Source: Dehalococcoidia bacterium
GTDB taxonomy: Bacteria > Chloroflexota > Dehalococcoidia > UBA6926
Direction: 5' to 3'
Length of the DNA stretch: 64,000 nucleotides
NCBI GenBank assembly: GCA_045562535.1
Contig: JBJKVP010000004.1
Span: 77,070 to 141,069, forward strand
Shown here: positions 1,771 to 48,196 of the stretch, one piece after another
Layout: every line of letters starts with the position of its first letter
How positions within the stretch are numbered: the first letter of the stretch is position 1
The notes under the pieces: generated by a model
Seen by the model: only the letters and a program-made list of their open reading frames with translations
Told to the model about the DNA's origin: nothing
The model's database searches: none
Position numbers and translations under genes: made by a program

Positions 1771-3435
1771 TTGGTACCTAAAGTTATTATCATGAAAATT
1801 GTTAGCGCTAGAGAAATGAACGCGGTAGAACAAGAAGTGATGCGCTCAGGGACTTCGGAAAACACTTTGATCGCAAACGCAGCAAAGTCGATAAGTAATA
1901 TTGTCAAAACAAGGCTAGGCAGCGTCATTGGCAAAAACATACTCGTATTAGCCGGACCAGGGAACAACGGTAAGGATGCGTTAGCATCAAGTCTTATACT
2001 CGCAAAATGGGGAGCTAATATAACAGTTCACATTGCTGGAAACGATCAATCATCCAATATTTTTGCTGAGTCTATACAGTCTTCAGGTAACATTGTGGTC
2101 AGTTCTCAAAAAATATTTCTAGATTTTTTGGACACTATTGAAAATTCAACTGAACAATATTTATTATTGGACGGTTTATTTGGAACCGGATATCAAAAAC
2201 GGCCCCAATCTATAATGTCTCAACTTACAAGTAAATTGAATAAGTCTACGGGTAAAAATAATGCTTCGATTCAGGTTTTAGCTATCGATATTCCTTCCGG
2301 AATGAACTCTGATGATGGCTCAGGAGACGAAGATATTTTGAAAGCAGACTTTACGGTCGCTATAGGAGCTATCAAAAAAGGACTGTTAACATCTCAAGGT
2401 TTAGAAAAATGCGGAAAAATTATAGTTGCGCCGATAGGCATACCGGAAGAAAGTTTTCCAATATCATCCCCTGAAGTATTAGAACTATCAAAAGTTTCTA
2501 AAATGCTTTCTCTTAGACCACTAGACGGTCACAAAGGTACATTTGGTAAAGCATCAATCATTGGAGGATCACCCACGTATATTGGCGCCCCTTTTATGGC
2601 CGCAAGGTCAGCAATACGATCAGGGGCTGGCCTAGTATCTTTAGTGACTCCTGGGAATTTGGGAGCCGAAACAGCTGAATATTTACCTGAAGCCATCCAC
2701 GAGTCACTTCCAACTAACCCGAGCAATAAATCATTTGATCAAGTCTCTGCCAATGCATTTCTAGAACGCGATTTTAATAATGCTACACTTATCGGTCCTG
2801 GGATTGGTTTAGCTAAATATACCGTGGAATTTATCCACCAAATCATTAAATCTTCTGGTAAAAAGGGAACAGCTTCCCGTTCAAAACAGATAGTTATAGA
2901 TGCAGATGGGATTACCGCCATATCATCTCTCAAAGAATGGTGGGATCAAAACAACAATATCTCCGTTATTACTCCGCATCCCGGAGAAATGGCAACTCTA
3001 TCAAACATACCCACAGAATCTATACAGCAAAACCGTTTAGATACAGTTTATGAGAAATCTCTGCAATGGGGAGTTGTGGTAGTGCTAAAAGGAGCGTTAA
3101 CAGCCGTTGGAAATCCTTATGGGGATATATCGGTTAACCCTCTAGCTTGGCCAGGATTAGCATCTGCAGGTACTGGTGACGTTCTTTCAGGACTGATAAC
3201 CGGCTTGCTCGCTCAGGGACATGAACCGTACTCTGCGGCACAAATAGGGGTATACACACATGGAATATCTAGCATTTTAGCAGCGGAACACCTCGCTGCC
3301 GAAGATCGGGGTATCTTGGCTACCGACGTGGCCGACAACATACCAAAAGCAATTAATATAATGTTAAGTGGCAAAATGGAAAAGTATTTAGTAAATCAAT
3401 TAACAATCGTCACCGAGTCAGTTTACTTATCATAA
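1771..3435 (+). CDS. nnr: Bifunctional NAD(P)H-hydrate repair enzyme (epimerase plus ADP-dependent dehydratase, YjeF N- and C-terminal domains)
   Basis: 554 aa. The N-terminal YjeF_N domain carries LAGPGNNGGDAL-like GPGNNGKDAL. The C-terminal carbohydrate-kinase-like domain carries GDVLSG. Confidence 0.85.
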   Translation: MVPKVIIMKIVSAREMNAVEQEVMRSGTSENTLIANAAKSISNIVKTRLGSVIGKNILVLAGPGNNGKDALASSLILAKWGANITVHIAGNDQSSNIFAESIQSSGNIVVSSQKIFLDFLDTIENSTEQYLLLDGLFGTGYQKRPQSIMSQLTSKLNKSTGKNNASIQVLAIDIPSGMNSDDGSGDEDILKADFTVAIGAIKKGLLTSQGLEKCGKIIVAPIGIPEESFPISSPEVLELSKVSKMLSLRPLDGHKGTFGKASIIGGSPTYIGAPFMAARSAIRSGAGLVSLVTPGNLGAETAEYLPEAIHESLPTNPSNKSFDQVSANAFLERDFNNATLIGPGIGLAKYTVEFIHQIIKSSGKKGTASRSKQIVIDADGITAISSLKEWWDQNNNISVITPHPGEMATLSNIPTESIQQNRLDTVYEKSLQWGVVVVLKGALTAVGNPYGDISVNPLAWPGLASAGTGDVLSGLITGLLAQGHEPYSAAQIGVYTHGISSILAAEHLAAEDRGILATDVADNIPKAINIMLSGKMEKYLVNQLTIVTESVYLS

Positions 3436-3446
3436 ACCCCATCATA

Positions 3447-3962
3447 TTATTTGAGCCCTCTAATGAGTGCTACACCTAGTAGTAAAGTAATCACTCCAGC
3501 ACCCCTTATTATGTCCACTCGGTGTATTGGTAAACCAAATGCTCCAAGATGATCCAGTAGTACTGAACCAATAACTTGTCCAGCTATAGTTGCTGTTACA
3601 AACAACCCAATACCTATTTTAGGGCCTAAGTAACCAGCACCAACTAGCAAAGGGATAGCAAATAAACCAGTAATAAAATAGTAGAAAGGCAACCCTCGAA
3701 GAACCAAGAGTAAGCTCGCAGCGGCGACGATGGAGATCCCTGCAACCAAAAGGATCCTGTTGAATGGCGAAGGAATCACTAATACCCCATTGAATGCACG
3801 ATATGCCATCAAAGCAGCTACTCCCATAACTGTAGCCATCAAAGATAACCATGTTGCCTCAAGAGGGCCTCTGATTCGGCTCATCGCCGAAATCATTGTA
3901 ACTTGTACCGCCATGCCAGACCCTATCAATATACTAAATACAATGTACAGTATTTGATTCAT
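3447..3962 (-). CDS. DMT-superfamily transporter, DUF606/YdcZ-like (5-TM half-size)
   Basis: 171 aa, highly hydrophobic, about 5 TM helices, glycine-rich helices typical of DUF606 (BAT family). Confidence 0.55.
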   Translation of the reverse strand: MNQILYIVFSILIGSGMAVQVTMISAMSRIRGPLEATWLSLMATVMGVAALMAYRAFNGVLVIPSPFNRILLVAGISIVAAASLLLVLRGLPFYYFITGLFAIPLLVGAGYLGPKIGIGLFVTATIAGQVIGSVLLDHLGAFGLPIHRVDIIRGAGVITLLLGVALIRGLK

Positions 3963-3997
3963 TGGTTAACTCTGCTTACTTTGGCCAATAGTGCTCA

Positions 3998-4885
3998 CTA
4001 GTCCAACCATCCAGGCTCTTGCTGTATCCAGTCTTTGACCGACATTAGCGGAATATCCCATTCTTTTTTAAGTTCATCAACGTTAACCTGGTACCCTTCT
4101 CCCTCATAAAATTCATTCATGGTTTTCATTGGCCCGGGGACGCGATCTCTTTGATCTTCAGGTATATGATTGTAATTTACTTCGATTCCTAAGGATTCAG
4201 CAAAAACCTGCGCTACCTCTGGTAGTGTCATTACATCACCTGCAAGATCAATTTCCTTTCCCGAAAAGCGCTCTGGGTTTTCAAATGCTGCTACCGCAAA
4301 GTCAGCGATGTTTTGCACTGCTATGAACCACTGGTTTCTATCAGGAGATAAAATACCAGATAGTCGCCCGTTTTTTATAGCGTCTCTGTTCCTATTAAAA
4401 TTGTCTGTGAAAGATACAGGTCGAAGTATTGTGTAATTAACACCTCCATTTTTTATAATTCCCTCGATTGCTCCTTTTGTTTCAAAATGAGGCACACCTA
4501 TACTTCTGTTACCTCCAGAAACTCCGCTAAACACGATATGGCGGACATTAGACATCTTCGATGCGTCAACTACATTAGACCCTCGGTTAATTTCGGTACT
4601 AGGGTCTTCTCTTCCAATCCCAATAAAATACACTCCATATGCTCCATCCATAGCTTTCTTCAGAGAATTCAAATCATCCATGTCGCCCGCAAATAACTCT
4701 GCCCCTAAACTAGCAACGTCCTTTGCAACATCGGATTCAATAGTACGAGTAAGCACTCTGACGCCATAACCTTTTTCAACCAAAAGCCGTACAACCTTGC
4801 TGCCTTGGGTTCCAGTACCACCAATAACCAATATCGATTTGCTTCCTGTGCTCATTTTTCCCTCCCTATAATGCTTATCCATCAT
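3998..4885 (-). CDS. NmrA-family NAD(P)-binding protein (atypical SDR)
   Basis: N-terminal Rossmann motif ILVIGGTGTQG; NmrA-like length (295 aa). Confidence 0.75.
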   Translation of the reverse strand: MMDKHYREGKMSTGSKSILVIGGTGTQGSKVVRLLVEKGYGVRVLTRTIESDVAKDVASLGAELFAGDMDDLNSLKKAMDGAYGVYFIGIGREDPSTEINRGSNVVDASKMSNVRHIVFSGVSGGNRSIGVPHFETKGAIEGIIKNGGVNYTILRPVSFTDNFNRNRDAIKNGRLSGILSPDRNQWFIAVQNIADFAVAAFENPERFSGKEIDLAGDVMTLPEVAQVFAESLGIEVNYNHIPEDQRDRVPGPMKTMNEFYEGEGYQVNVDELKKEWDIPLMSVKDWIQQEPGWLD

Positions 4886-4923
4886 CTTTCGTTAATTTTC
4901 ATCATAAATAAGTCAAATAACGA

Positions 4924-5787
4924 TTATTTTCCCAGATTGAAGTTGATCATATTGAGCCAATCGTGGAATGTCAGCGTATTGATTTTCCATCTATCTTTCA
5001 ATTTACTGATGTCTTCGTCGTAACCAAATTCTTGGTACCATCGGCTCATAGCTAGTGCGCCCGAAGAAACTCCCGTTCCAATCTCCGTCTGAGTATAACT
5101 TATATCTGAACCAACTACGGAACTCAGGGTTTCAGCAATTCTAGTCATGGTAATAGTTTCTGATGCAATATCAATCTCTTGACCAACAAATTCTCCAGGG
5201 CGAGCTAGTGCTTGCGAAGCATATAGTCCAATATCGTAGCCTGAGATAACTTGTAATTCCTTGTCAGGGGTCAACAAACCGTTTATATTCCCTTCTCTAA
5301 GTGCCGTCCTATTCGATATATAATTTTCCATAAAAGACACGGGACGTAAAATTGTATAGGGTAATCCGCTCTCTCTCACTGATTCGATGATTACCCGCTT
5401 AGAATCCCAATAATCTACACCTCTGTTTGGTTCTTTAGCTCCGCAAGAAGCCGTATAAACTAAGTGATTGACATTTTCTTCAACGCAGATCTCAATGACA
5501 CCACGTCCTTGCTCAATTTCGGTTTCAATAGTGTTTTCATTTTGGACCGAAAAAACCCCATGGCTTCCTCGGATAGCAACACGGAGAGAATCTAAGTCAT
5601 CCATATCGCCTTTAATTATTTCAACTCCTCTGTTCGCCAATGAGCGCGCTGAAGGCGAGTCAGGATTCCTAGTTAAAGCAACTGGATACCACTCTTTTGT
5701 AGTAAGTAAATGGGTTATTAAACCACCACCTTGGTTTCCAGTAGCACCTATCACTAGTACTTTTTTTCTCTCTGTGGAACTAGTCAA
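4924..5787 (-). CDS. NmrA-family NAD(P)-binding protein (tandem paralog)
   Basis: VLVIGATGNQGG Rossmann motif. It is collinear with the preceding NmrA protein, which suggests tandem duplication. Confidence 0.75.
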   Translation of the reverse strand: MTSSTERKKVLVIGATGNQGGGLITHLLTTKEWYPVALTRNPDSPSARSLANRGVEIIKGDMDDLDSLRVAIRGSHGVFSVQNENTIETEIEQGRGVIEICVEENVNHLVYTASCGAKEPNRGVDYWDSKRVIIESVRESGLPYTILRPVSFMENYISNRTALREGNINGLLTPDKELQVISGYDIGLYASQALARPGEFVGQEIDIASETITMTRIAETLSSVVGSDISYTQTEIGTGVSSGALAMSRWYQEFGYDEDISKLKDRWKINTLTFHDWLNMINFNLGK

Positions 5788-5826
5788 ATTAATTGCCTCT
5801 TTTCGTTATAAGTTGATTAAATTTTA

Positions 5827-6375
5827 CTAAAACCCTAATCGGGAAAGTTGTGACAATATTTCATCTGAAGAAGGTCTATCACCAGCATTTTCTCCTATTC
5901 TTCTCCACAAAATTGATCCATCTTTACCAACTATAAAAACTGCTGGCGCAGCAAGGCGATCATCTAAAACATCAAAAACTTGATAGTTTTTAGAAACTGT
6001 GGCTTGATCGTCTGACAATATATGAAAATCAGGTTGAACTAGAGACGTCATGTTTCTGACTTCGTCAAGACTATCAATGCTTATTGCGAGAATCTCTGAA
6101 TTGCGATCTCTAAATTCGCTGTATCTGCTCTGCAACTCTCCGAGTTGGCCACGACAAATACCTCAAAAATAACCCCGGTAGAAAATTAGAACCACCGCTT
6201 GGTTTTCTAGAAGAGTGTTTTCTAAAGAGATTTTATTATCATTTCCATCAGTTAACGTGAAATTCGGAGCAGATGAATTGATAGTGGTATCATCTCCCAT
6301 GTTAGCTAAAAGAATGGTTCCGCCAATTGTTACTGCAACTAAGAAATAAATTATTAGATAAAATGGCCTAAACAA
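5827..6375 (-). CDS. Membrane-anchored Bcp/PrxQ-like redoxin (AhpC/TSA family) with an in-frame TGA (6163..6165) read as selenocysteine, giving a UxxC active site
   Basis: The two adjacent ORFs (6163..6375 and 5827..6135) are in the same frame, separated only by TGA. The joined product reads ...VVLIFYRGYF-U-GICRGQLGELQSRYSEFRDRNSEILAISIDS..., which follows the Bcp pattern FYPKDDTPGCTTE...FRDRYEEF...VLGVSVDS. A 6-bp hairpin (CAACUC-GGA-GAGUUG) starts 15 nt after the UGA. The N-terminal TM helix is followed by APNFTLTDGNDNKISL, a redoxin substrate-binding strand. Confidence 0.55.
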
Positions 6376-6522
6376 AAAAACCTACCTTTTTTAACCTGAT
6401 TGTTCTAAACGTTTAACAACCAATACCCGATATCATATAACACTCGAAAATATATCTAAAGCAAATAAATAAATTCAAAAGTTTTAGGATTTTCCTAAAG
6501 AAGGTTATAATATCGGCTCATC

Positions 6523-7287
6523 ATGTTTCTTGCAGTAGACATAGGAAATACAAGTGTGAAAATCGGGCTTTATACAAGTTCGGATTTTAATTCAATTTGG
6601 AGAATAGAAACAAATGAAACACGCTCACAAATTTTGGATTTTGAATCGATTGAAGCCTGGTTGTTAAAAAACAAAGTAGTTCCTCAGGAAATAGAAAGTA
6701 TAGGTTTAGCAAGCGTTGTTCCAAATTTAACTGAGATGATTACCAATTCATTAAAAAACCACTTTAAAACAAACTTACTAGTCATCGATTCCGATTTAGA
6801 TCTAGGTATTAAATTGAAAGTTGATAAACCAAAAGAAGTTGGTATTGATAGAATCATAAACGCTGTTTCGGCATCCGAGATTTTGCCTACGCCAATAATT
6901 ATCATTGATTTTGGTACTGCAACAACCTTTGATGTCGTAGATAAGAACGGAGATTACATCGGTGGTACAATAGTACCTGGAGTAGAACTATCTTCGAGGG
7001 CACTTGCTTCGAATACAGCAAAATTGCCGGAAATTCCTCTTGAGTTTCCCTCGAAATGGATAGGAAAAAACACGGTTGAATCTATGCAATCAGGTTTAAT
7101 GAATGGGTACATGGGCTTGGTTGAAGGTATGGTTAATGGTATAAATACCGAGCTAGGACAAAATGCTAACGTTATAGCAACAGGAGGGCTAGCGGCTACT
7201 ATATCAAAACGCACAAACTGTATAGGAATAGTAAAGCCAAGTTTAACTCTGGATGGAATTAAAAGGATTTGGGAATTAAATAATTAA
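6523..7287 (+). CDS. coaX: Type III pantothenate kinase
   Basis: N-terminal MFLAVDIGNTSVKIGLY (DxGNT motif) and the ASKHA fold motifs GGTIVPG and ATGGLA. Confidence 0.9.
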   Translation: MFLAVDIGNTSVKIGLYTSSDFNSIWRIETNETRSQILDFESIEAWLLKNKVVPQEIESIGLASVVPNLTEMITNSLKNHFKTNLLVIDSDLDLGIKLKVDKPKEVGIDRIINAVSASEILPTPIIIIDFGTATTFDVVDKNGDYIGGTIVPGVELSSRALASNTAKLPEIPLEFPSKWIGKNTVESMQSGLMNGYMGLVEGMVNGINTELGQNANVIATGGLAATISKRTNCIGIVKPSLTLDGIKRIWELNN

Positions 7288-15762: not shown

Positions 15763-15849
15763 GGCAGGATGGCGGAGCGGTCAAACGCACCAGGCTGTAA
15801 ACTTGGCGCCCTTAGGGCTACGGGGGTTCAAATCCCTCTCCTGCCACCA
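15763..15849 (+). tRNA. tRNA-Tyr (anticodon GUA), class II with long variable arm, CCA encoded
   Basis: Folded by hand. The acceptor GGCAGGA pairs with TCCTGCC. The anticodon stem is CCAGG/CTTGG with loop CTGTAAA. The variable arm is GCCC-TTA-GGGC. T-loop is TTCAAAT and the 3' end is ACCA. Confidence 0.85.
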
Positions 15850-15929: not shown

Positions 15930-17174
15930 ATGAGCCAACAGTCTTTCCACATACCAGAAGCCAACGAAGCTTTAGCAAGCACAACGTTAGATGGACTTGT
16001 TTCTAGAGGGTTAATAGAAGAAATCATTGTCCGAGATGAACTAAATCAAGCGATTGAATCAGGCAATAAACTCACAATTTATCAAGGTTTTGATCCAACT
16101 AGCCCAAGCCTCCACTTAGGACATTATTTATCGCTCAGGATACTGCGCTGGTTTCAATTAAATGGTCATAGAGTAATATTTTTGGTTGGAGATTTCACCG
16201 CGAGAATTGGGGATCCCTCGGAGCAAACAGCTGAAAGGAAACAGCTTTCAAAAGATCAAGTGGTAAGCAACACTTCTAATTGGCTCAATCAAATTTCCAG
16301 GGTACTTGATCTTCAAGAAACTAATCCTGTAGAAATCAAATATAACAGCGAGTGGCTAAGCAAATTATCACTGGAAGATATTATGAATTTATCTTCTCAA
16401 ATAACAGTTCAAAGGCTCATTGAGCGTGACATGTTCCAAAAAAGAATCCAAGAGAATAAACCCTTACACATGCATGAAACTCTTTATCCAATACTGCAAG
16501 GGTATGACTCCGTTGCGATGAACGTTGATATAGAACTAGGTGGTAGAGATCAAATGTTTAATATGCTCGTGGGAAGAGATTTTGTTCGAACTACGCATAA
16601 ACATGCTAAGCATGTATTAATGACTCCTCTAATCCCAGGGCTCGACGGAAGAAAGATGAGCAAAACTTATAACAACACAGTGGACTTAGATGAGCGACCT
16701 GCAGAGATGTACTTTAAATTAACACAAATAAACGACGAGCTTTTACCGTTATTTTTTAGCATCTTTACAGATATACCAGATGATGAATTAGAAGATATCT
16801 CCAAAAAAATCAACAGTAAGGAAGAAATGCGACCAGATAGATCCCGGTTATCTTATGAAATAGTAAAGGTTTTCCATGGAGAGGAAGTAGCTAACAACGC
16901 TAGACGAGAATTTAATAGAGTTATAGCTCAAGGAGAACAAAGAGAAGACCTTTTAGAAATCTCAGTTCCCGTGCAGGAGGAGTTTTCCATACTGGAACTT
17001 TGCATCCTTTCAAATCAACTTTCAAGCAAGGGCGATGCAAGGCGACTTATAAAGCAAGGTGCAATTGAAATCGATGGAGAAAAATATACCGATCCCAACA
17101 AAACAGTCCTAAGCTCAACTATTCAAGGAAAGGTAATTAAAATAGGAAACAGGGGATACTTCAAATTTAAGTGA
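15930..17174 (+). CDS. tyrS: Tyrosine--tRNA ligase
   Basis: 414 aa. HIGH motif (SLHLGHY), KMSKS (KMSKT), and a C-terminal S4-like domain. Confidence 0.9.
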   Translation: MSQQSFHIPEANEALASTTLDGLVSRGLIEEIIVRDELNQAIESGNKLTIYQGFDPTSPSLHLGHYLSLRILRWFQLNGHRVIFLVGDFTARIGDPSEQTAERKQLSKDQVVSNTSNWLNQISRVLDLQETNPVEIKYNSEWLSKLSLEDIMNLSSQITVQRLIERDMFQKRIQENKPLHMHETLYPILQGYDSVAMNVDIELGGRDQMFNMLVGRDFVRTTHKHAKHVLMTPLIPGLDGRKMSKTYNNTVDLDERPAEMYFKLTQINDELLPLFFSIFTDIPDDELEDISKKINSKEEMRPDRSRLSYEIVKVFHGEEVANNARREFNRVIAQGEQREDLLEISVPVQEEFSILELCILSNQLSSKGDARRLIKQGAIEIDGEKYTDPNKTVLSSTIQGKVIKIGNRGYFKFK

Positions 17175-19141: not shown

Positions 19142-19654
19142 TCATATCGTTCTTAAAGCAATTCCAAGAAAGACGACTACTGGGCCTAAAACGAAAATCG
19201 TGTTCCTTGAATTTACTCGCTTGAACACTTGAATTAAAAATCGGGTTATTGTGTATGAGTTGAATCTGCCAAAAATTCGCGATGAAAAAAACTCCTTCTC
19301 ATTTTCTTTTTGCATTTTTTTTGCAGATTTATATCCCATAATAAACATTAGAAACGATAGAGTTATTTTCAAAGTTAAAATCGTGAAATATGGAATCTCT
19401 ATTCTAGTTGCCAAATTATCTAATGCTAAAAGAGCGCCGGTCAGAATTAATACCCATTTAGACAATTCAACTATTTCACTAAATGACTGACCAAAAGATT
19501 TAGGGAATGGCTTAGAATCAATTTCTTTTGTATTAGGTTTTAGTACAATAAAGAAAATAATATTGCCGCCAATCCACGTTATCGTAGCCATAACATGTAA
19601 CCATCGAATAGCAATAATAATTAAATCACTGAAACTCATAGTGCTGACATCCAT
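19142..19654 (-). CDS. CopD/HemJ-like small membrane protein (about 4 TM)
   Basis: Has an H-x6-W-x-G motif (HVMATITWIGG) like HemJ/CopD-type proteins. A paralog lies at 54125..54646. Confidence 0.35.
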   Translation of the reverse strand: MDVSTMSFSDLIIIAIRWLHVMATITWIGGNIIFFIVLKPNTKEIDSKPFPKSFGQSFSEIVELSKWVLILTGALLALDNLATRIEIPYFTILTLKITLSFLMFIMGYKSAKKMQKENEKEFFSSRIFGRFNSYTITRFLIQVFKRVNSRNTIFVLGPVVVFLGIALRTI

Positions 19655-21555
19655 CTTGAAAATATCTCAGTACATTTTTGATGTGAAGATTTACCAGTTT
19701 GATGATAGATCGATCTGAAAGGATTCAATCCAATATTCCCAAACAATTGTTGTACTGAACAAAGAGGCAAGCCTAATATATTCAACGGACAACCATCATA
19801 TTCTTCCACCGGATTCAATACTTTATCCTGTATTCCGTATCCTCCAGCCTTTTGATACGGGTTGCCTTTGATAATATACTCCTCAATTTCGTCGTCTGTG
19901 CAATCTCTAAATGTAACGCTTGTAGTATTAAAAGCTGAGTCAATTTCTTGGGAGGCAGGGTTAAATAATGCAACAGCCGTTATGACTTCATGAACATTTC
20001 CCCGTAAGTTATATAGCATTTTACGAGCATCATCCGCGTCTTTTGGTTTACCAAAGATTTCTCCTTTCGAAGAAACAACTATAGTGTCAGCTGCGAGAAC
20101 TGGTACTTTAGATTTATTCGCTATTGATTTAGCTTTAGCCAAAGCAATTTCCGTAGCATATGTCGAAGGTGAAATGTTTATCGGTAAACTGTTTGAAAAC
20201 AACTCTTCTTTTAACGCTGGCTCTAGGATTGTTCCTTCAAAATCAACAGACCTTAATAATTCAATCCGCCTTTTTGACGTTGATGCAAGAATATAAGATT
20301 GTCTATTGGCACGTTCAAGAATAGTTAAAGACTCGATATGGGAAGTATGGGGAAACATGTCAATAGGAGTAATTTCTTTAATGGAAAATCCTCCCAAAAC
20401 TAGATATGCTAAATCTCTCGATAAAGTGATGGGATCGCAAGATACATACGCTATCTTTTCTGGTGGGTTTTCTATTATAGAATCTAAAACCGATTTATCA
20501 CATCCTGACCGAGGAGGGTCGAGTATTAAATGGTCAATTATGAAACGCTCGTTCTTCATTACAATTTCAGTTTTTTCTTGAATCAAATCTATATTAGGCA
20601 ATCCTAAGAGATTCTGTTTAGCGTCTTTCACCGCCGCCGCTGACTCTTCAACTGCGATAATATTTGCATAGAAAGGGCAAAGTAGCCCAGCAAAAACTCC
20701 TACTCCGGCATACGCGTCGACTAAAGTTTCCAACCCGTTGGGGTTCAGTTTTTCTCTAATAAGAGTCACCATTTTTTCAGCTTGTCGGGTATTAACCTGG
20801 AAAAACGAGGGAGAGGAAATCTGAAAGTCGAATCCTAACAAATTTTCACTATGCTGAGGCTGACCTGTTTCAACAGAAAGAGTAGTATCTCGATCGGAAA
20901 AGTCAGGTTGAATCATATAAGAATCAGTATTGACTCCTACTCTAACCGACAATTGGCTATCGCTTGAATTTAATGAATTTTGTAGTTGGCTCTTTATCTC
21001 ATTAATTCGAGGATCCATGATACCGCAATGGTCAATAGACTCGAATCGGTGAGTTATCCAATTAGTGAAACCAATCTCCCCATTATTCCTTACGGTAAAT
21101 CTCGCATTGTTCCTATATCCGAAATTGAGTGGGGATTTCATCATCTCTGAAACCAAAGGGTCAACAATTTTAGCGGTTTGTCTTAAAGTTTTAATAACAA
21201 TATCGCGTTTCAATTGGAGCTGTTTATCATAATCTATATGCTGAAGTTGACAACCACCGCACTCACCAAAGTGGGGACATTCAGGCAGTTTACGACTATT
21301 AGAAGCAGAATAGATCTTAACTACCCTACCATAGAGAGTGCTTTCTCTCCGACCAAGAATCTCAACTTGCACATCTTCTTCTGGTATTCCGAAAGCTACA
21401 TCTATACTTTCACCATCTTCTGTAACGCCAGTGGCATCCCCTTGGTTGTTAAAGCCAGTAAGTTTTACATTAACTATCGGGTTCTTAGTATCCAGTTTCA
21501 CTTGAGAAGCAAAGGAAGGATCAAACCTTCTATGTTTTTTACGAGCAGATTTCAT
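19636..21555 (-). CDS. Fusion protein: N-terminal RlmD/RumA-family 23S rRNA (uracil-C5)-methyltransferase (TRAM + 4Fe-4S + MTase) and C-terminal Maf-family nucleoside-triphosphate pyrophosphatase
   Basis: Single 639-aa ORF. Residues 1 to about 430 carry the TRAM domain, the Cys cluster CPHFGECGGC...C, the SAM motif DAYAGVG, DPPRSGC, and the catalytic VSCDP. Residues about 440 to 639 are Maf-like (ILASTSKRRIELL, ADTIVV, GKPKD, GYGIQD). Confidence 0.8.
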   Translation of the reverse strand: MKSARKKHRRFDPSFASQVKLDTKNPIVNVKLTGFNNQGDATGVTEDGESIDVAFGIPEEDVQVEILGRRESTLYGRVVKIYSASNSRKLPECPHFGECGGCQLQHIDYDKQLQLKRDIVIKTLRQTAKIVDPLVSEMMKSPLNFGYRNNARFTVRNNGEIGFTNWITHRFESIDHCGIMDPRINEIKSQLQNSLNSSDSQLSVRVGVNTDSYMIQPDFSDRDTTLSVETGQPQHSENLLGFDFQISSPSFFQVNTRQAEKMVTLIREKLNPNGLETLVDAYAGVGVFAGLLCPFYANIIAVEESAAAVKDAKQNLLGLPNIDLIQEKTEIVMKNERFIIDHLILDPPRSGCDKSVLDSIIENPPEKIAYVSCDPITLSRDLAYLVLGGFSIKEITPIDMFPHTSHIESLTILERANRQSYILASTSKRRIELLRSVDFEGTILEPALKEELFSNSLPINISPSTYATEIALAKAKSIANKSKVPVLAADTIVVSSKGEIFGKPKDADDARKMLYNLRGNVHEVITAVALFNPASQEIDSAFNTTSVTFRDCTDDEIEEYIIKGNPYQKAGGYGIQDKVLNPVEEYDGCPLNILGLPLCSVQQLFGNIGLNPFRSIYHQTGKSSHQKCTEIFSRWMSAL

Positions 21556-46843: not shown

Positions 46844-47941
46844 TTATCGGCGAACAACTATATCCACCCAATCCGAAATCCATTTATCCAAGTCTTGAGC
46901 AGAAGCATTTAATTGAATTTCTGGTTTAGAATCAGGTTCAGGAGCAAATTGGAATATTTTTGGAACAAGCGCTTTCTTGTTTACAGGATAAACCCACATT
47001 CTTGTAGGAAAATCCTCTTGGAATCTTTTATTTAGAGCATAATCGATGAAACGTTCTGCCAGTCTCTGATTGTTTGAACCTCTTAAAATTCCAATTGTTT
47101 CTACTTGCAAAAACACAGCGTTCTTGTTCATCAAAACGCCAGTCGGAGGAGAGTCCATTGTTCCATCAGAATAATATACTTCAGCTGCAGGGCTAGTTGA
47201 ATAACTTACAACTAAGGGTCGGTCACCACCCCATAAACTAAACGCCGTATAGTAGGCATCGCTCCATCCATCGCTTACCTTTACATCGTTAGACTTAAGA
47301 TCAGACCAATATTCTTTCCAAGTATAGTCTCCGTCCTCACCAAATCTATTAATTGTTGTCAGCAAAAATGCCAATCCAGGAGAAGAAGTCGCCGGGTTCT
47401 GAACAACAAGTTTACCTCTCCATTTTTCAGTAGTTAACTCATATAAATCGCTGGGAGGTGTCAATTGGTTAGAATCTATCCATGATAAATCATAATTAAC
47501 TGCAACATATCCGTAATCAATAGGAGTAACCCTATATTTTGGATCAATATGAAATTTTTCCGGTACCTGATCTACCAAAGGAGATCTATAAGGAATGAAA
47601 AGGGATTCTTTTAAAGCTCTATTTAAAAAAGTATTATCTATTCCGTAAATCAAATCTGCTATGGGAGCATCTTTCGTTAAAATTGCTTTAGTTAAGATTT
47701 CCCCTGCATCTCCGCCTTTTTGAATAATCACTTCTACATTGTAATCATGTTCAAATTGATCGATCAGCTCTTCCCCAATATCAAAGCTATCATGAGTCAA
47801 TATAATAAGTGGCTTATCCGTTGAGTTATCAATCGTACAGCCCTGCACTACCGTAGCTAAAATAATAACAGCGAGTAATAATTTGGATTTGTTTTTGAAC
47901 AACCGTAACCATCGGTCCATGACTAATAGGTTTAGCTTCAT
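46844..47941 (-). CDS. thiB: Thiamine/TPP-binding periplasmic lipoprotein (ThiB/TbpA-like); start moved from the six-frame ORF to ATG 47939..47941
   Basis: Lipobox LATVVQGC. Blocks matching E. coli ThiB recalled from memory (DYGYVAVNYD, GWSDAYY, LVVSYSTSPA, MWVYPV, WISDWV). The longer six-frame ORF would translate the riboswitch itself. Confidence 0.75.
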   Translation of the reverse strand: MKLNLLVMDRWLRLFKNKSKLLLAVIILATVVQGCTIDNSTDKPLIILTHDSFDIGEELIDQFEHDYNVEVIIQKGGDAGEILTKAILTKDAPIADLIYGIDNTFLNRALKESLFIPYRSPLVDQVPEKFHIDPKYRVTPIDYGYVAVNYDLSWIDSNQLTPPSDLYELTTEKWRGKLVVQNPATSSPGLAFLLTTINRFGEDGDYTWKEYWSDLKSNDVKVSDGWSDAYYTAFSLWGGDRPLVVSYSTSPAAEVYYSDGTMDSPPTGVLMNKNAVFLQVETIGILRGSNNQRLAERFIDYALNKRFQEDFPTRMWVYPVNKKALVPKIFQFAPEPDSKPEIQLNASAQDLDKWISDWVDIVVRR

Positions 47942-48040
47942 GATAGTTTTCCCTCCGCCGGAATTACCCAGACAGGTTCTAACGGTCGCCTTAATCAAAT
48001 TAAGGCCTCTCAGCCAGGAAACCTAGCTCCCGAAGACGTT
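47942..48040 (-). ncRNA. TPP (thiamine pyrophosphate) riboswitch, THI element, with the P1 3' strand overlapping the thiB Shine-Dalgarno
   Basis: The minus-strand RNA reads CUUCGGGAGCUAGGUUUCCUGGCUGAGAGGCC...GACCGUUAGAACCUGUCUGGGUAAUUCCGGCGGAGGGAAAACUAUCAUG. This matches the consensus GGGGUGCCC...CUGAGA...ACCCUUUGAACCUGAUCUGGAUAAUGCCAGCGUAGGGAA. Confidence 0.75.
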
Positions 48041-48196
48041 ACTCGATATTTATAACAGGAGAATTTTAATAAGTAAATAGTTTACATTTGCCGCGAGAAT
48101 CGATTGGCTAGTAGAATGATAGATAACAGATCTTTAGAGGATACTAAATATATTTAAGATGGATATTAATTAATTGGGAAGTGAGGATTAATTATT

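Follow-up and report, generated by a model that had tools for sequence, protein, structure and literature searches.

The 64 kb window, by which we mean the whole stretch of DNA that was analyzed, carries on its minus strand two adjacent open reading frames of 70 aa (6163..6375, TGA included) and 102 aa (5827..6135). The segments 6375..6166 and 6162..5827 are in one shared frame and the sole break in this frame is a TGA at 6165..6163, just as a prior sequence-only reading of this locus had described. When read through, the complete gene (5827..6375, minus strand) has 182 codons including the putative selenocysteine (Sec) codon, followed by a TAG stop at 5829..5827. The start codon is a TTG (6375..6373, minus), and both this start and the N-terminal peptide are kept across orthologs, where the internal Met26 is replaced by Ile. 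The read-through product of 182 residues begins with M-FRPFYLIIYFLVAVTIGGTILLAN, contains AAPAVFIVGKDG further along, and ends in LSRLGF. The in-frame UGA, a putative Sec codon (6163..6165, minus), corresponds to residue 71 and is the first position of a U71-G-I-C74 redox motif. The peptide around it reads VVLIFYRGYF-U-GICRGQLGELQSRYSEFRDR...ILAISIDS, where the stretch after U is also given as GICRGQLGELQSRY.

With Cys placed at the TGA, the read-through product matched PF00578 (AhpC-TSA) with E=1.1e-26 (93.6 bits, where the cutoff is 26) over residues 33-156, which lie on both sides of the TGA. The match to PF08534 (Redoxin) also crosses the TGA (E=4.7e-19). The best profile match is the peroxiredoxin Bcp (2cx3), and these results agree with the proposal that the read-through is colinear with the Bcp/PrxQ framework. 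There are 19 pairs of open reading frames joined by a TGA in the 64 kb window, and a redox motif is found only in the 5827..6375 pair; the remaining pairs were rejected as further selenoprotein candidates.

Downstream of the redoxin gene and in the same direction are two NmrA-like genes (5787..4924 and 4885..3998, minus) and a DMT_YdcZ gene (formerly DUF606; 3962..3447, minus), all assigned from Pfam matches. Between the redoxin stop and the first NmrA start there is a gap of 39 nt that contains no terminator-like site, and promoter-like sites occur upstream of the redoxin at approximately 6478-6432. The NmrA-NmrA-YdcZ block (3447..5787, minus) is probably part of the same operon. Neighboring genes also include a divergent type III pantothenate kinase gene and a YjeF-type NAD(P)HX repair gene, and the other annotated genes between approximately 400 and 21,600 have housekeeping functions (folD, coaBC, valS, tyrS, aroG-type, pheA-type, and others). 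Neither an electron donor of the CcdA/DsbD type nor a selenium-related gene was found among the annotated neighbors in this interval (approximately 400-21,600). The order redoxin-NmrA-NmrA-YdcZ is kept in the close relatives L001, L012, and L013 and was not found in L014-L016 or in other phyla. Thus, the "redox-flavored cluster" of the sequence-only reading has the genes described, two NmrA paralogs and a DUF606 transporter, but it is conserved in close relatives only. Because of this restriction (L001-L013), gene order says little about function, and we rejected the idea of a conserved functional link between the redoxin and the NmrA and YdcZ genes.

Divergence across this block is uneven. 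In comparison with L013 (Dehalococcoidia bacterium UBA6926; 3447-7287), identity is 97.6% for the first NmrA protein, 92.9% for the second, and 87% for YdcZ; the selenoredoxin is 76% identical, CoaX 75%, and YjeF 66%. This pattern suggests that the NmrA genes were covered by a recent recombination event or that the redoxin has evolved unusually fast. Elsewhere in the window, the only tRNA is a tRNA-Tyr(GTA) at 15763-15849 (+), directly upstream of the tyrosyl-tRNA synthetase gene (15930-17174, +). A TPP riboswitch (RF00059) at 47933-48043 (–) scores 59.6 bits, above its gathering score, and a 639-aa open reading frame at 19636-21555 (–) encodes an apparent fusion of a tRNA (uracil-5)-methyltransferase with a C-terminal Maf domain.

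The N terminus of the read-through product contains a predicted transmembrane signal-anchor (6304..6363, minus; approximately residues 5-24), and with this anchor the redox domain would lie on the outer side of the cytoplasmic membrane. Mean Kyte-Doolittle hydropathy reaches 2.33 over residues 5-23, residues 5-27 are helical in the AF2 model, and this hydrophobic segment has one Arg ahead of it and acidic residues behind. Most homologs begin with a transmembrane domain or with a signal peptide of the lipoprotein or secretory type. Because of this hydrophobic segment with its flanking charges and the N-terminal signals of the homologs, we infer that the redox domain is likely to be membrane-anchored and to face outward. 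The N terminus is more elaborate in some lineages. Homologs from Poribacteria (L017-L050) have an N-terminal extension of approximately 240 residues behind a lipoprotein-like signal, and in homologs from Acidobacteriota and Verrucomicrobiota (L051-L090) a multi-transmembrane N-terminal domain is fused to the Sec-redoxin.

Databases hold this gene chiefly in pieces. Among 5.8 billion proteins searched, the only matches were C-terminal halves of 102-110 aa and one distant full-length Cys homolog (P0007); the clusters also contain N-terminal halves (70 aa), pieces of 74 aa, and two entries of 182 aa that have Trp at residue 71. Fragments and Trp entries of this kind are the usual footprint of a Sec codon missed by gene callers. 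The NCBI protein MFL2640324.1 is a 110-aa "peroxiredoxin family protein" (5827-6159 of the window) with a non-canonical start inside the UxxC motif (MCRGQ...). None of the seven family members tested reached an NCBIfam cutoff, including those of SelL_rel_redox, ResA, and any peroxiredoxin equivalog, which is probably why only a 110-aa fragment is annotated at NCBI. Because no NCBIfam cutoff is reached and databases mostly hold protein halves, it is likely that the family is systematically mis-annotated in Dehalococcoidia, Poribacteria, Acidobacteriota, Verrucomicrobiota, and others.

To describe the fold, we used an alignment-based AF2 model (pLDDT 86.4, pTM 0.79); a single-sequence AF2 model had a pLDDT of 49 and was discarded as unusable. 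The modeled sequence was P0012, which has Trp at residue 71, and the model is used here for the fold and not for local active-site geometry. It has a peroxiredoxin/thioredoxin fold in which residue 71 is N-terminal to a helix at residues 72-83. The structures nearest to the model are Bcp4, LsfA, AhpE, a 2-Cys peroxiredoxin, and ResA. Similarly, a profile search of PDB sequences returned Aeropyrum pernix Bcp (2cx3, E=7e-22), Sulfolobus Bcp1 and Bcp4, and Mycobacterium tuberculosis AhpE, followed by ResA. In the profile alignment, U71 occupies the position of the peroxiredoxin Thr/Ser, C74 that of the peroxidatic Cys, and P144 (AA-P-AVFIV) that of the peroxiredoxin Arg (AK-R-AVFIV). Thus, the earlier placement of Sec on the Thr of the peroxiredoxin TxxC motif, giving UxxC, holds at the level of the alignment. 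From the peroxiredoxin triad of Thr/Ser-x-x-Cys plus Arg, the Cys is kept, the Thr/Ser is replaced by Sec71, and the Arg is replaced by the family-invariant Pro144.

These replacements bear on the likely chemistry. A CxxC-like motif together with a Pro before beta-3 is the arrangement of thioredoxin-fold thiol:disulfide oxidoreductases. Because only one of the three peroxiredoxin catalytic residues is kept and this arrangement is present, selenylsulfide/disulfide exchange is favored, and a thioredoxin-like selenylsulfide oxidoreductase seems more likely than a peroxidase. The description of the protein as Bcp/PrxQ-like therefore stands for its fold but not for its likely chemistry, since the peroxiredoxin Arg is replaced by Pro. 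It could be that the protein is a genuine selenoprotein that acts as a peroxidase, either as a Sec-based peroxiredoxin or in a manner similar to glutathione peroxidase (GPx). The leading sequence and structure matches (Bcp 2cx3 at 7e-22, Bcp4, AhpE, LsfA) are indeed peroxiredoxins, C74 fills the peroxidatic Cys position, and Sec reacts readily with peroxides, as established from the chemistry of GPx and Sec-peroxiredoxins. However, with an invariant Pro for the Arg and Sec or Cys for the Thr, the site becomes a CxxC-type motif with a cis-Pro-like residue, ResA is also among the leading family and structure matches, and the UxxC form is classed apart from the TxxU Sec-peroxiredoxins (PMC1088965, PMC9312934). 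We consider peroxidase activity unlikely and favor the thiol:disulfide oxidoreductase.

The TGA is conserved over long evolutionary distances. It is present in all nine orthologous loci found in metagenomes from Tara Oceans and other marine samples (approximately 75% aa identity), which have the context VLIFYRGYF-U-GICR[GS]QLGELQ and the same synteny. Values of dS in comparison with five of the metagenomic orthologs are 1.0-1.4, which is near saturation, and dN/dS is 0.13-0.19 over codons 2-70 and 0.10-0.12 over codons 72-182. At a dN/dS of 0.10-0.19 before and after the TGA, both halves are under purifying selection and are therefore translated in the shared frame. The TGA also occurs in the GTDB genomes L012-L016, including L014, a high-GC member of the Dehalococcoidia at 44% identity. 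L016 (complete Dehalococcoidia MAG chromosome OZ244903.1) has three tandem Sec-redoxin paralogs at 3025-4700, each with an in-frame TGA and its own hairpin; the two shorter paralogs have lipoprotein-like signal peptides.

A scan of GTDB with one genome per species identified 257 relatives, and the best 80 of these were fetched. The aligned column in 82 motif instances from these best 80 of 257 relatives, a sample that is skewed toward relatives of a Sec-containing query, is TGA in 68 cases and a Cys codon (TGT/TGC) in 14. In homologs at 30-44% identity, the TGA is found in at least five phyla. Among the best 80 of 257, the TGA forms are from Dehalococcoidia (L012-L016), more than 30 Poribacteria, Acidobacteriota, Verrucomicrobiota, a Polyangiaceae MAG, and an Anaerolineae MAG; the Cys forms are chiefly from Bacteroidota, Gemmatimonas, and Blastocatellia. 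In P0007, the first Cys of CxxC stands at the position of residue 71, and around P0007 there is a Cys-type family of 2,684 database proteins at E<=1e-10. In an alignment with 70 Cys homologs, the residue 71 column is the near-invariant first Cys of a G-W-C-P-x-C motif, and C74 and P144 are invariant. Column 71 is thus a Sec/Cys pair across phyla.

Just downstream of the UGA there is a stem-loop, CAACUC-GGA-GAGUUG (6133..6147, minus), with a 6-bp stem and a GGA apical loop, which is a putative bacterial selenocysteine insertion sequence (SECIS). It begins 15 nt after the UGA (14-15 nt among the sequences that share this GGN-loop hairpin). The sequence and the minimum free energy (MFE) fold both bear out the perfect hairpin that had been noticed there. 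The MFE structure adds a lower stem, GUAUUUG (6161..6155) paired with CAGAUAC (6127..6121), to give an extended SECIS candidate at 6121..6161 (minus). Folding of 6175..6100 gives an MFE of –19.6 kcal/mol (z = –2.27), a stability matched by 5 of 200 shuffled sequences, so that the fold energy by itself is only moderately unusual. The 15-mer of the hairpin occurs once in the 64 kb window, where 0.17 copies are expected with up to two mismatches. A permissive Rfam scan of 5800..6420 gave only chance-level matches, none of them to a bacterial SECIS model. The geometry, with a loop of 3 nt that starts with G at 21 nt after the UGA and an upper stem of 6-7 bp, fits what we take to be the bSECISearch consensus.

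Conservation of this hairpin extends to synonymous sites. In close orthologs, none of the five hairpin codons (CAA-CUC-GGA-GAG-UUG) varies synonymously, in comparison with 73 of 100 degenerate codons for conserved residues elsewhere; the synonymous constraint on codons 77-82 is significant (Fisher p=0.008). Across 42 distinct sequences from several phyla, 95.6% of stem cells are paired as opposed to 15-54% when the partner is slid. Compensatory changes occur at two stem pairs (G-C/C-G and A-U/G-C) in these 42 sequences and four of the seven pairs are invariant. Because covariation is this sparse, the RNA evidence comes chiefly from synonymous-site conservation. One instructive case is L014, where CAA..UUG is changed to CAG..CUG, a synonymous double change that preserves both the peptide and the pairing. 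The sequence (G)CAACUC-GGN-GAGUUG(C) is found at the same distance from the UGA in Poribacteria and other Dehalococcoidia with only the third loop base varying freely. Pairing in the lower stem is held in close orthologs by one-sided changes (U-G to C-G, G-C to G-U). The lower stem is less certain because its register differs in Poribacteria. The hairpin is thus conserved in the Sec-containing orthologs, including at synonymous sites and with some compensatory changes.

Two classes of SECIS candidate were seen in the 60 nt after each TGA in L012-L091 (best 80 of 257 relatives). GCAACUC-GGN-GAGUUGC, with the peptide footprint QLGELQ, accounts for 39 cases from Dehalococcoidia, Poribacteria, and others. 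AACUCCG-AGUUR-CGGAGUU, which lies 9 nt after the UGA and has the footprint NSELRSF, accounts for 23 cases from Acidobacteriota and Verrucomicrobiota. Both peptide motifs are absent from the Cys homologs. It is conceivable, though doubtful, that the gene and its recoding signal have spread together by horizontal transfer, which would account for the near-identical SECIS candidates of Dehalococcoidia and Poribacteria.

We also looked for the machinery of Sec incorporation. In the 64 kb window, ARAGORN and Rfam found no tRNA-Sec, and tblastn with Escherichia coli SelA, SelB, and SelD gave no match below E=0.2. These three proteins likewise had no tblastn match in the 90 related loci that were fetched, and no tRNA-Sec was seen in the flanks of these loci. 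Chloroflexi were among the Sec-decoding phyla already in 2006 (PMC1794560), and in BSepDB, 49 and 46 selenoprotein genes are recorded for two MAGs of Dehalococcoidia (PMC13326102). A literature search joining SAR202 with selenoprotein returned no papers. From the lineage and the conservation described above, the host genome would be expected to decode Sec.

Another explanation is that the UGA is read as Trp, Gly, or Cys, through reassignment of TGA or near-cognate suppression, rather than as Sec. The two database entries with Trp at the site (P0012 and P0014) are in keeping with this. However, they come from contigs of approximately 800 bp, for which the gene caller probably picked an alternative genetic code. 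Global recoding of TGA is ruled out by stop-codon usage, since TGA is the stop of 10 of 52 long open reading frames in the window, valS among them; long genes are unfragmented and the coding density under the standard code is 88%. Moreover, all non-TGA homologs have Cys at this column, inside a CxxC redox motif, and the conserved hairpin, which has a G-rich triloop at its apex, is spaced from the UGA as a SECIS would be. A standard amino acid at this codon is therefore very unlikely. Least probable, to the point of being negligible, is that a Cys (TGY) codon has newly mutated to TGA and left a dead, split redoxin, because, even though gene callers and NCBI annotate fragments only and no Sec machinery is seen in the window, all orthologs keep the TGA at approximately 75% aa identity with dS of at least 1 and purifying selection on both halves, the TGA recurs in homologs at 30-44% identity from at least five phyla, synonymous sites in the downstream hairpin are additionally constrained, and assembly artifacts in the orthologs are implausible across independent assemblies. 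The recent nonsense mutation that the sequence-only reading had held out as its alternative is thus excluded.

The UxxC selenoprotein that it had put forward is supported by the conserved TGA, the Sec/Cys column, and the conserved hairpin. We conclude that 5827..6375 is one gene for a membrane-anchored redox protein that very probably has Sec at the in-frame UGA. Judged from sequence evidence, this is with high probability a real selenoprotein gene, and a selenoprotein with a membrane anchor and oxidoreductase activity is, with only slightly less assurance, the best explanation of the locus. We propose that codon 71 is decoded as Sec during translation, directed by the SECIS stem-loop inside the coding sequence just 3' of the UGA. 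This stem-loop would double as the code for QLGELQ and is presumably bound by SelB with Sec-tRNA(Sec). The predicted product has an N-terminal transmembrane anchor and an AhpC/TSA domain with U71-G-I-C74 at the start of helix alpha-1, in which two of the three peroxiredoxin catalytic residues are not kept: Sec takes the place of Thr, and Pro144, at the thioredoxin-type cis-Pro position, that of Arg. It most likely acts as a thiol:disulfide oxidoreductase of the thioredoxin/ResA type. The attack on a substrate disulfide, or on some other oxidized sulfur or selenium species, would come from Sec71, and Cys74 would then resolve the intermediate to form an intramolecular selenylsulfide. The reaction is predicted to occur at the outer face of the anchoring membrane.

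Among known systems, Bcp/PrxQ and AhpE are the closest solved structures and sequences, and Cys74 aligns with their peroxidatic Cys. By contrast with these proteins, the Thr and Arg of the Thr/Cys/Arg triad are not retained here. ResA, TlpA, and CcmG are similar to this protein in having an N-terminal membrane anchor, an extracytoplasmic thioredoxin-fold domain, a CxxC-type motif, and a cis-Pro. However, the overall fold here is nearer to peroxiredoxins (Bcp/AhpE), no cytochrome-maturation or CcdA genes are nearby, and the match to ResA (NF002854), which is the second-best NCBIfam match, scores 55.9 bits against a cutoff of 170. The best NCBIfam match is the SelL-related redox protein (NF040769), related to eukaryotic selenoprotein L, which shares the peroxiredoxin-like fold and a redox motif like that of thioredoxin. 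At 57.9 bits, where the cutoff is 120, the protein described here falls outside that family; five other members of its own family score 40-72 bits, and the SelL motif is UxxU as opposed to UxxC. SelL has been mentioned as a peroxiredoxin-like protein (PMC2398784).

The Cys-type "peroxiredoxin-like family protein" with the motif FYRGGW-CPYC has the same fold and motif register as the protein described here. It also shares the invariant Pro in place of the peroxiredoxin Arg and an extracytoplasmic location, which is reached there by a lipoprotein signal or signal peptide. It differs in having Cys for Sec and 22 additional residues inserted ahead of the cis-Pro strand, and identity is only approximately 25%. 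We take this family to be PRX_like2 of CDD.

Agreement is closest with the peroxiredoxin-like thiol:disulfide oxidoreductase selenoproteins (UxxC/UxxU), known first from Geobacter and other Deltaproteobacteria and from Sargasso Sea/GOS metagenomes. Such UxxC proteins have been catalogued from marine metagenomes since 2005 (PMC1088965, PMC2398784). The Sargasso Sea data contained 22 sequences of a peroxiredoxin-like UxxC family (pfam00578; PMC1088965), and "Prx-like 1 (pfam00578, UxxC)" is abundant in marine metagenomes, with 225 sequences in 37 GOS samples (PMC2398784). Compared with the description of this family, rather than with its reference sequence WP_010940744.1, the protein here has the sequence-level features of a member: a PF00578 match above the gathering score, a UGA within UxxC with CxxC homologs, a marine origin, and, just 3' of the UGA, a SECIS-like stem-loop with a G in its small apical loop, here a GGN triloop. 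Its N-terminal transmembrane anchor and local motif FYRGYF-U-GIC set it apart from the family as described, and its host is a member of the Dehalococcoidia from the aerobic ocean whereas the family was first seen in anaerobic Deltaproteobacteria. It could be imagined that the Dehalococcoidia copies are a distinct transmembrane- or lipid-anchored FYRGYF-U-GIC subfamily in which an extracytoplasmic selenoredoxin, co-transcribed NmrA NAD(P)H-binding proteins, and a YdcZ exporter form a new envelope redox/detoxification module of oxic-ocean bacteria, although we regard this as doubtful, and a shade more so than peroxidase activity. Because UxxC peroxiredoxin-like selenoproteins were known from ocean metagenomes, the gene alters no concept. 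With it, a marine lineage of Dehalococcoidia gains a probable envelope-located selenoprotein, in agreement with reports that this class is rich in selenoproteins.
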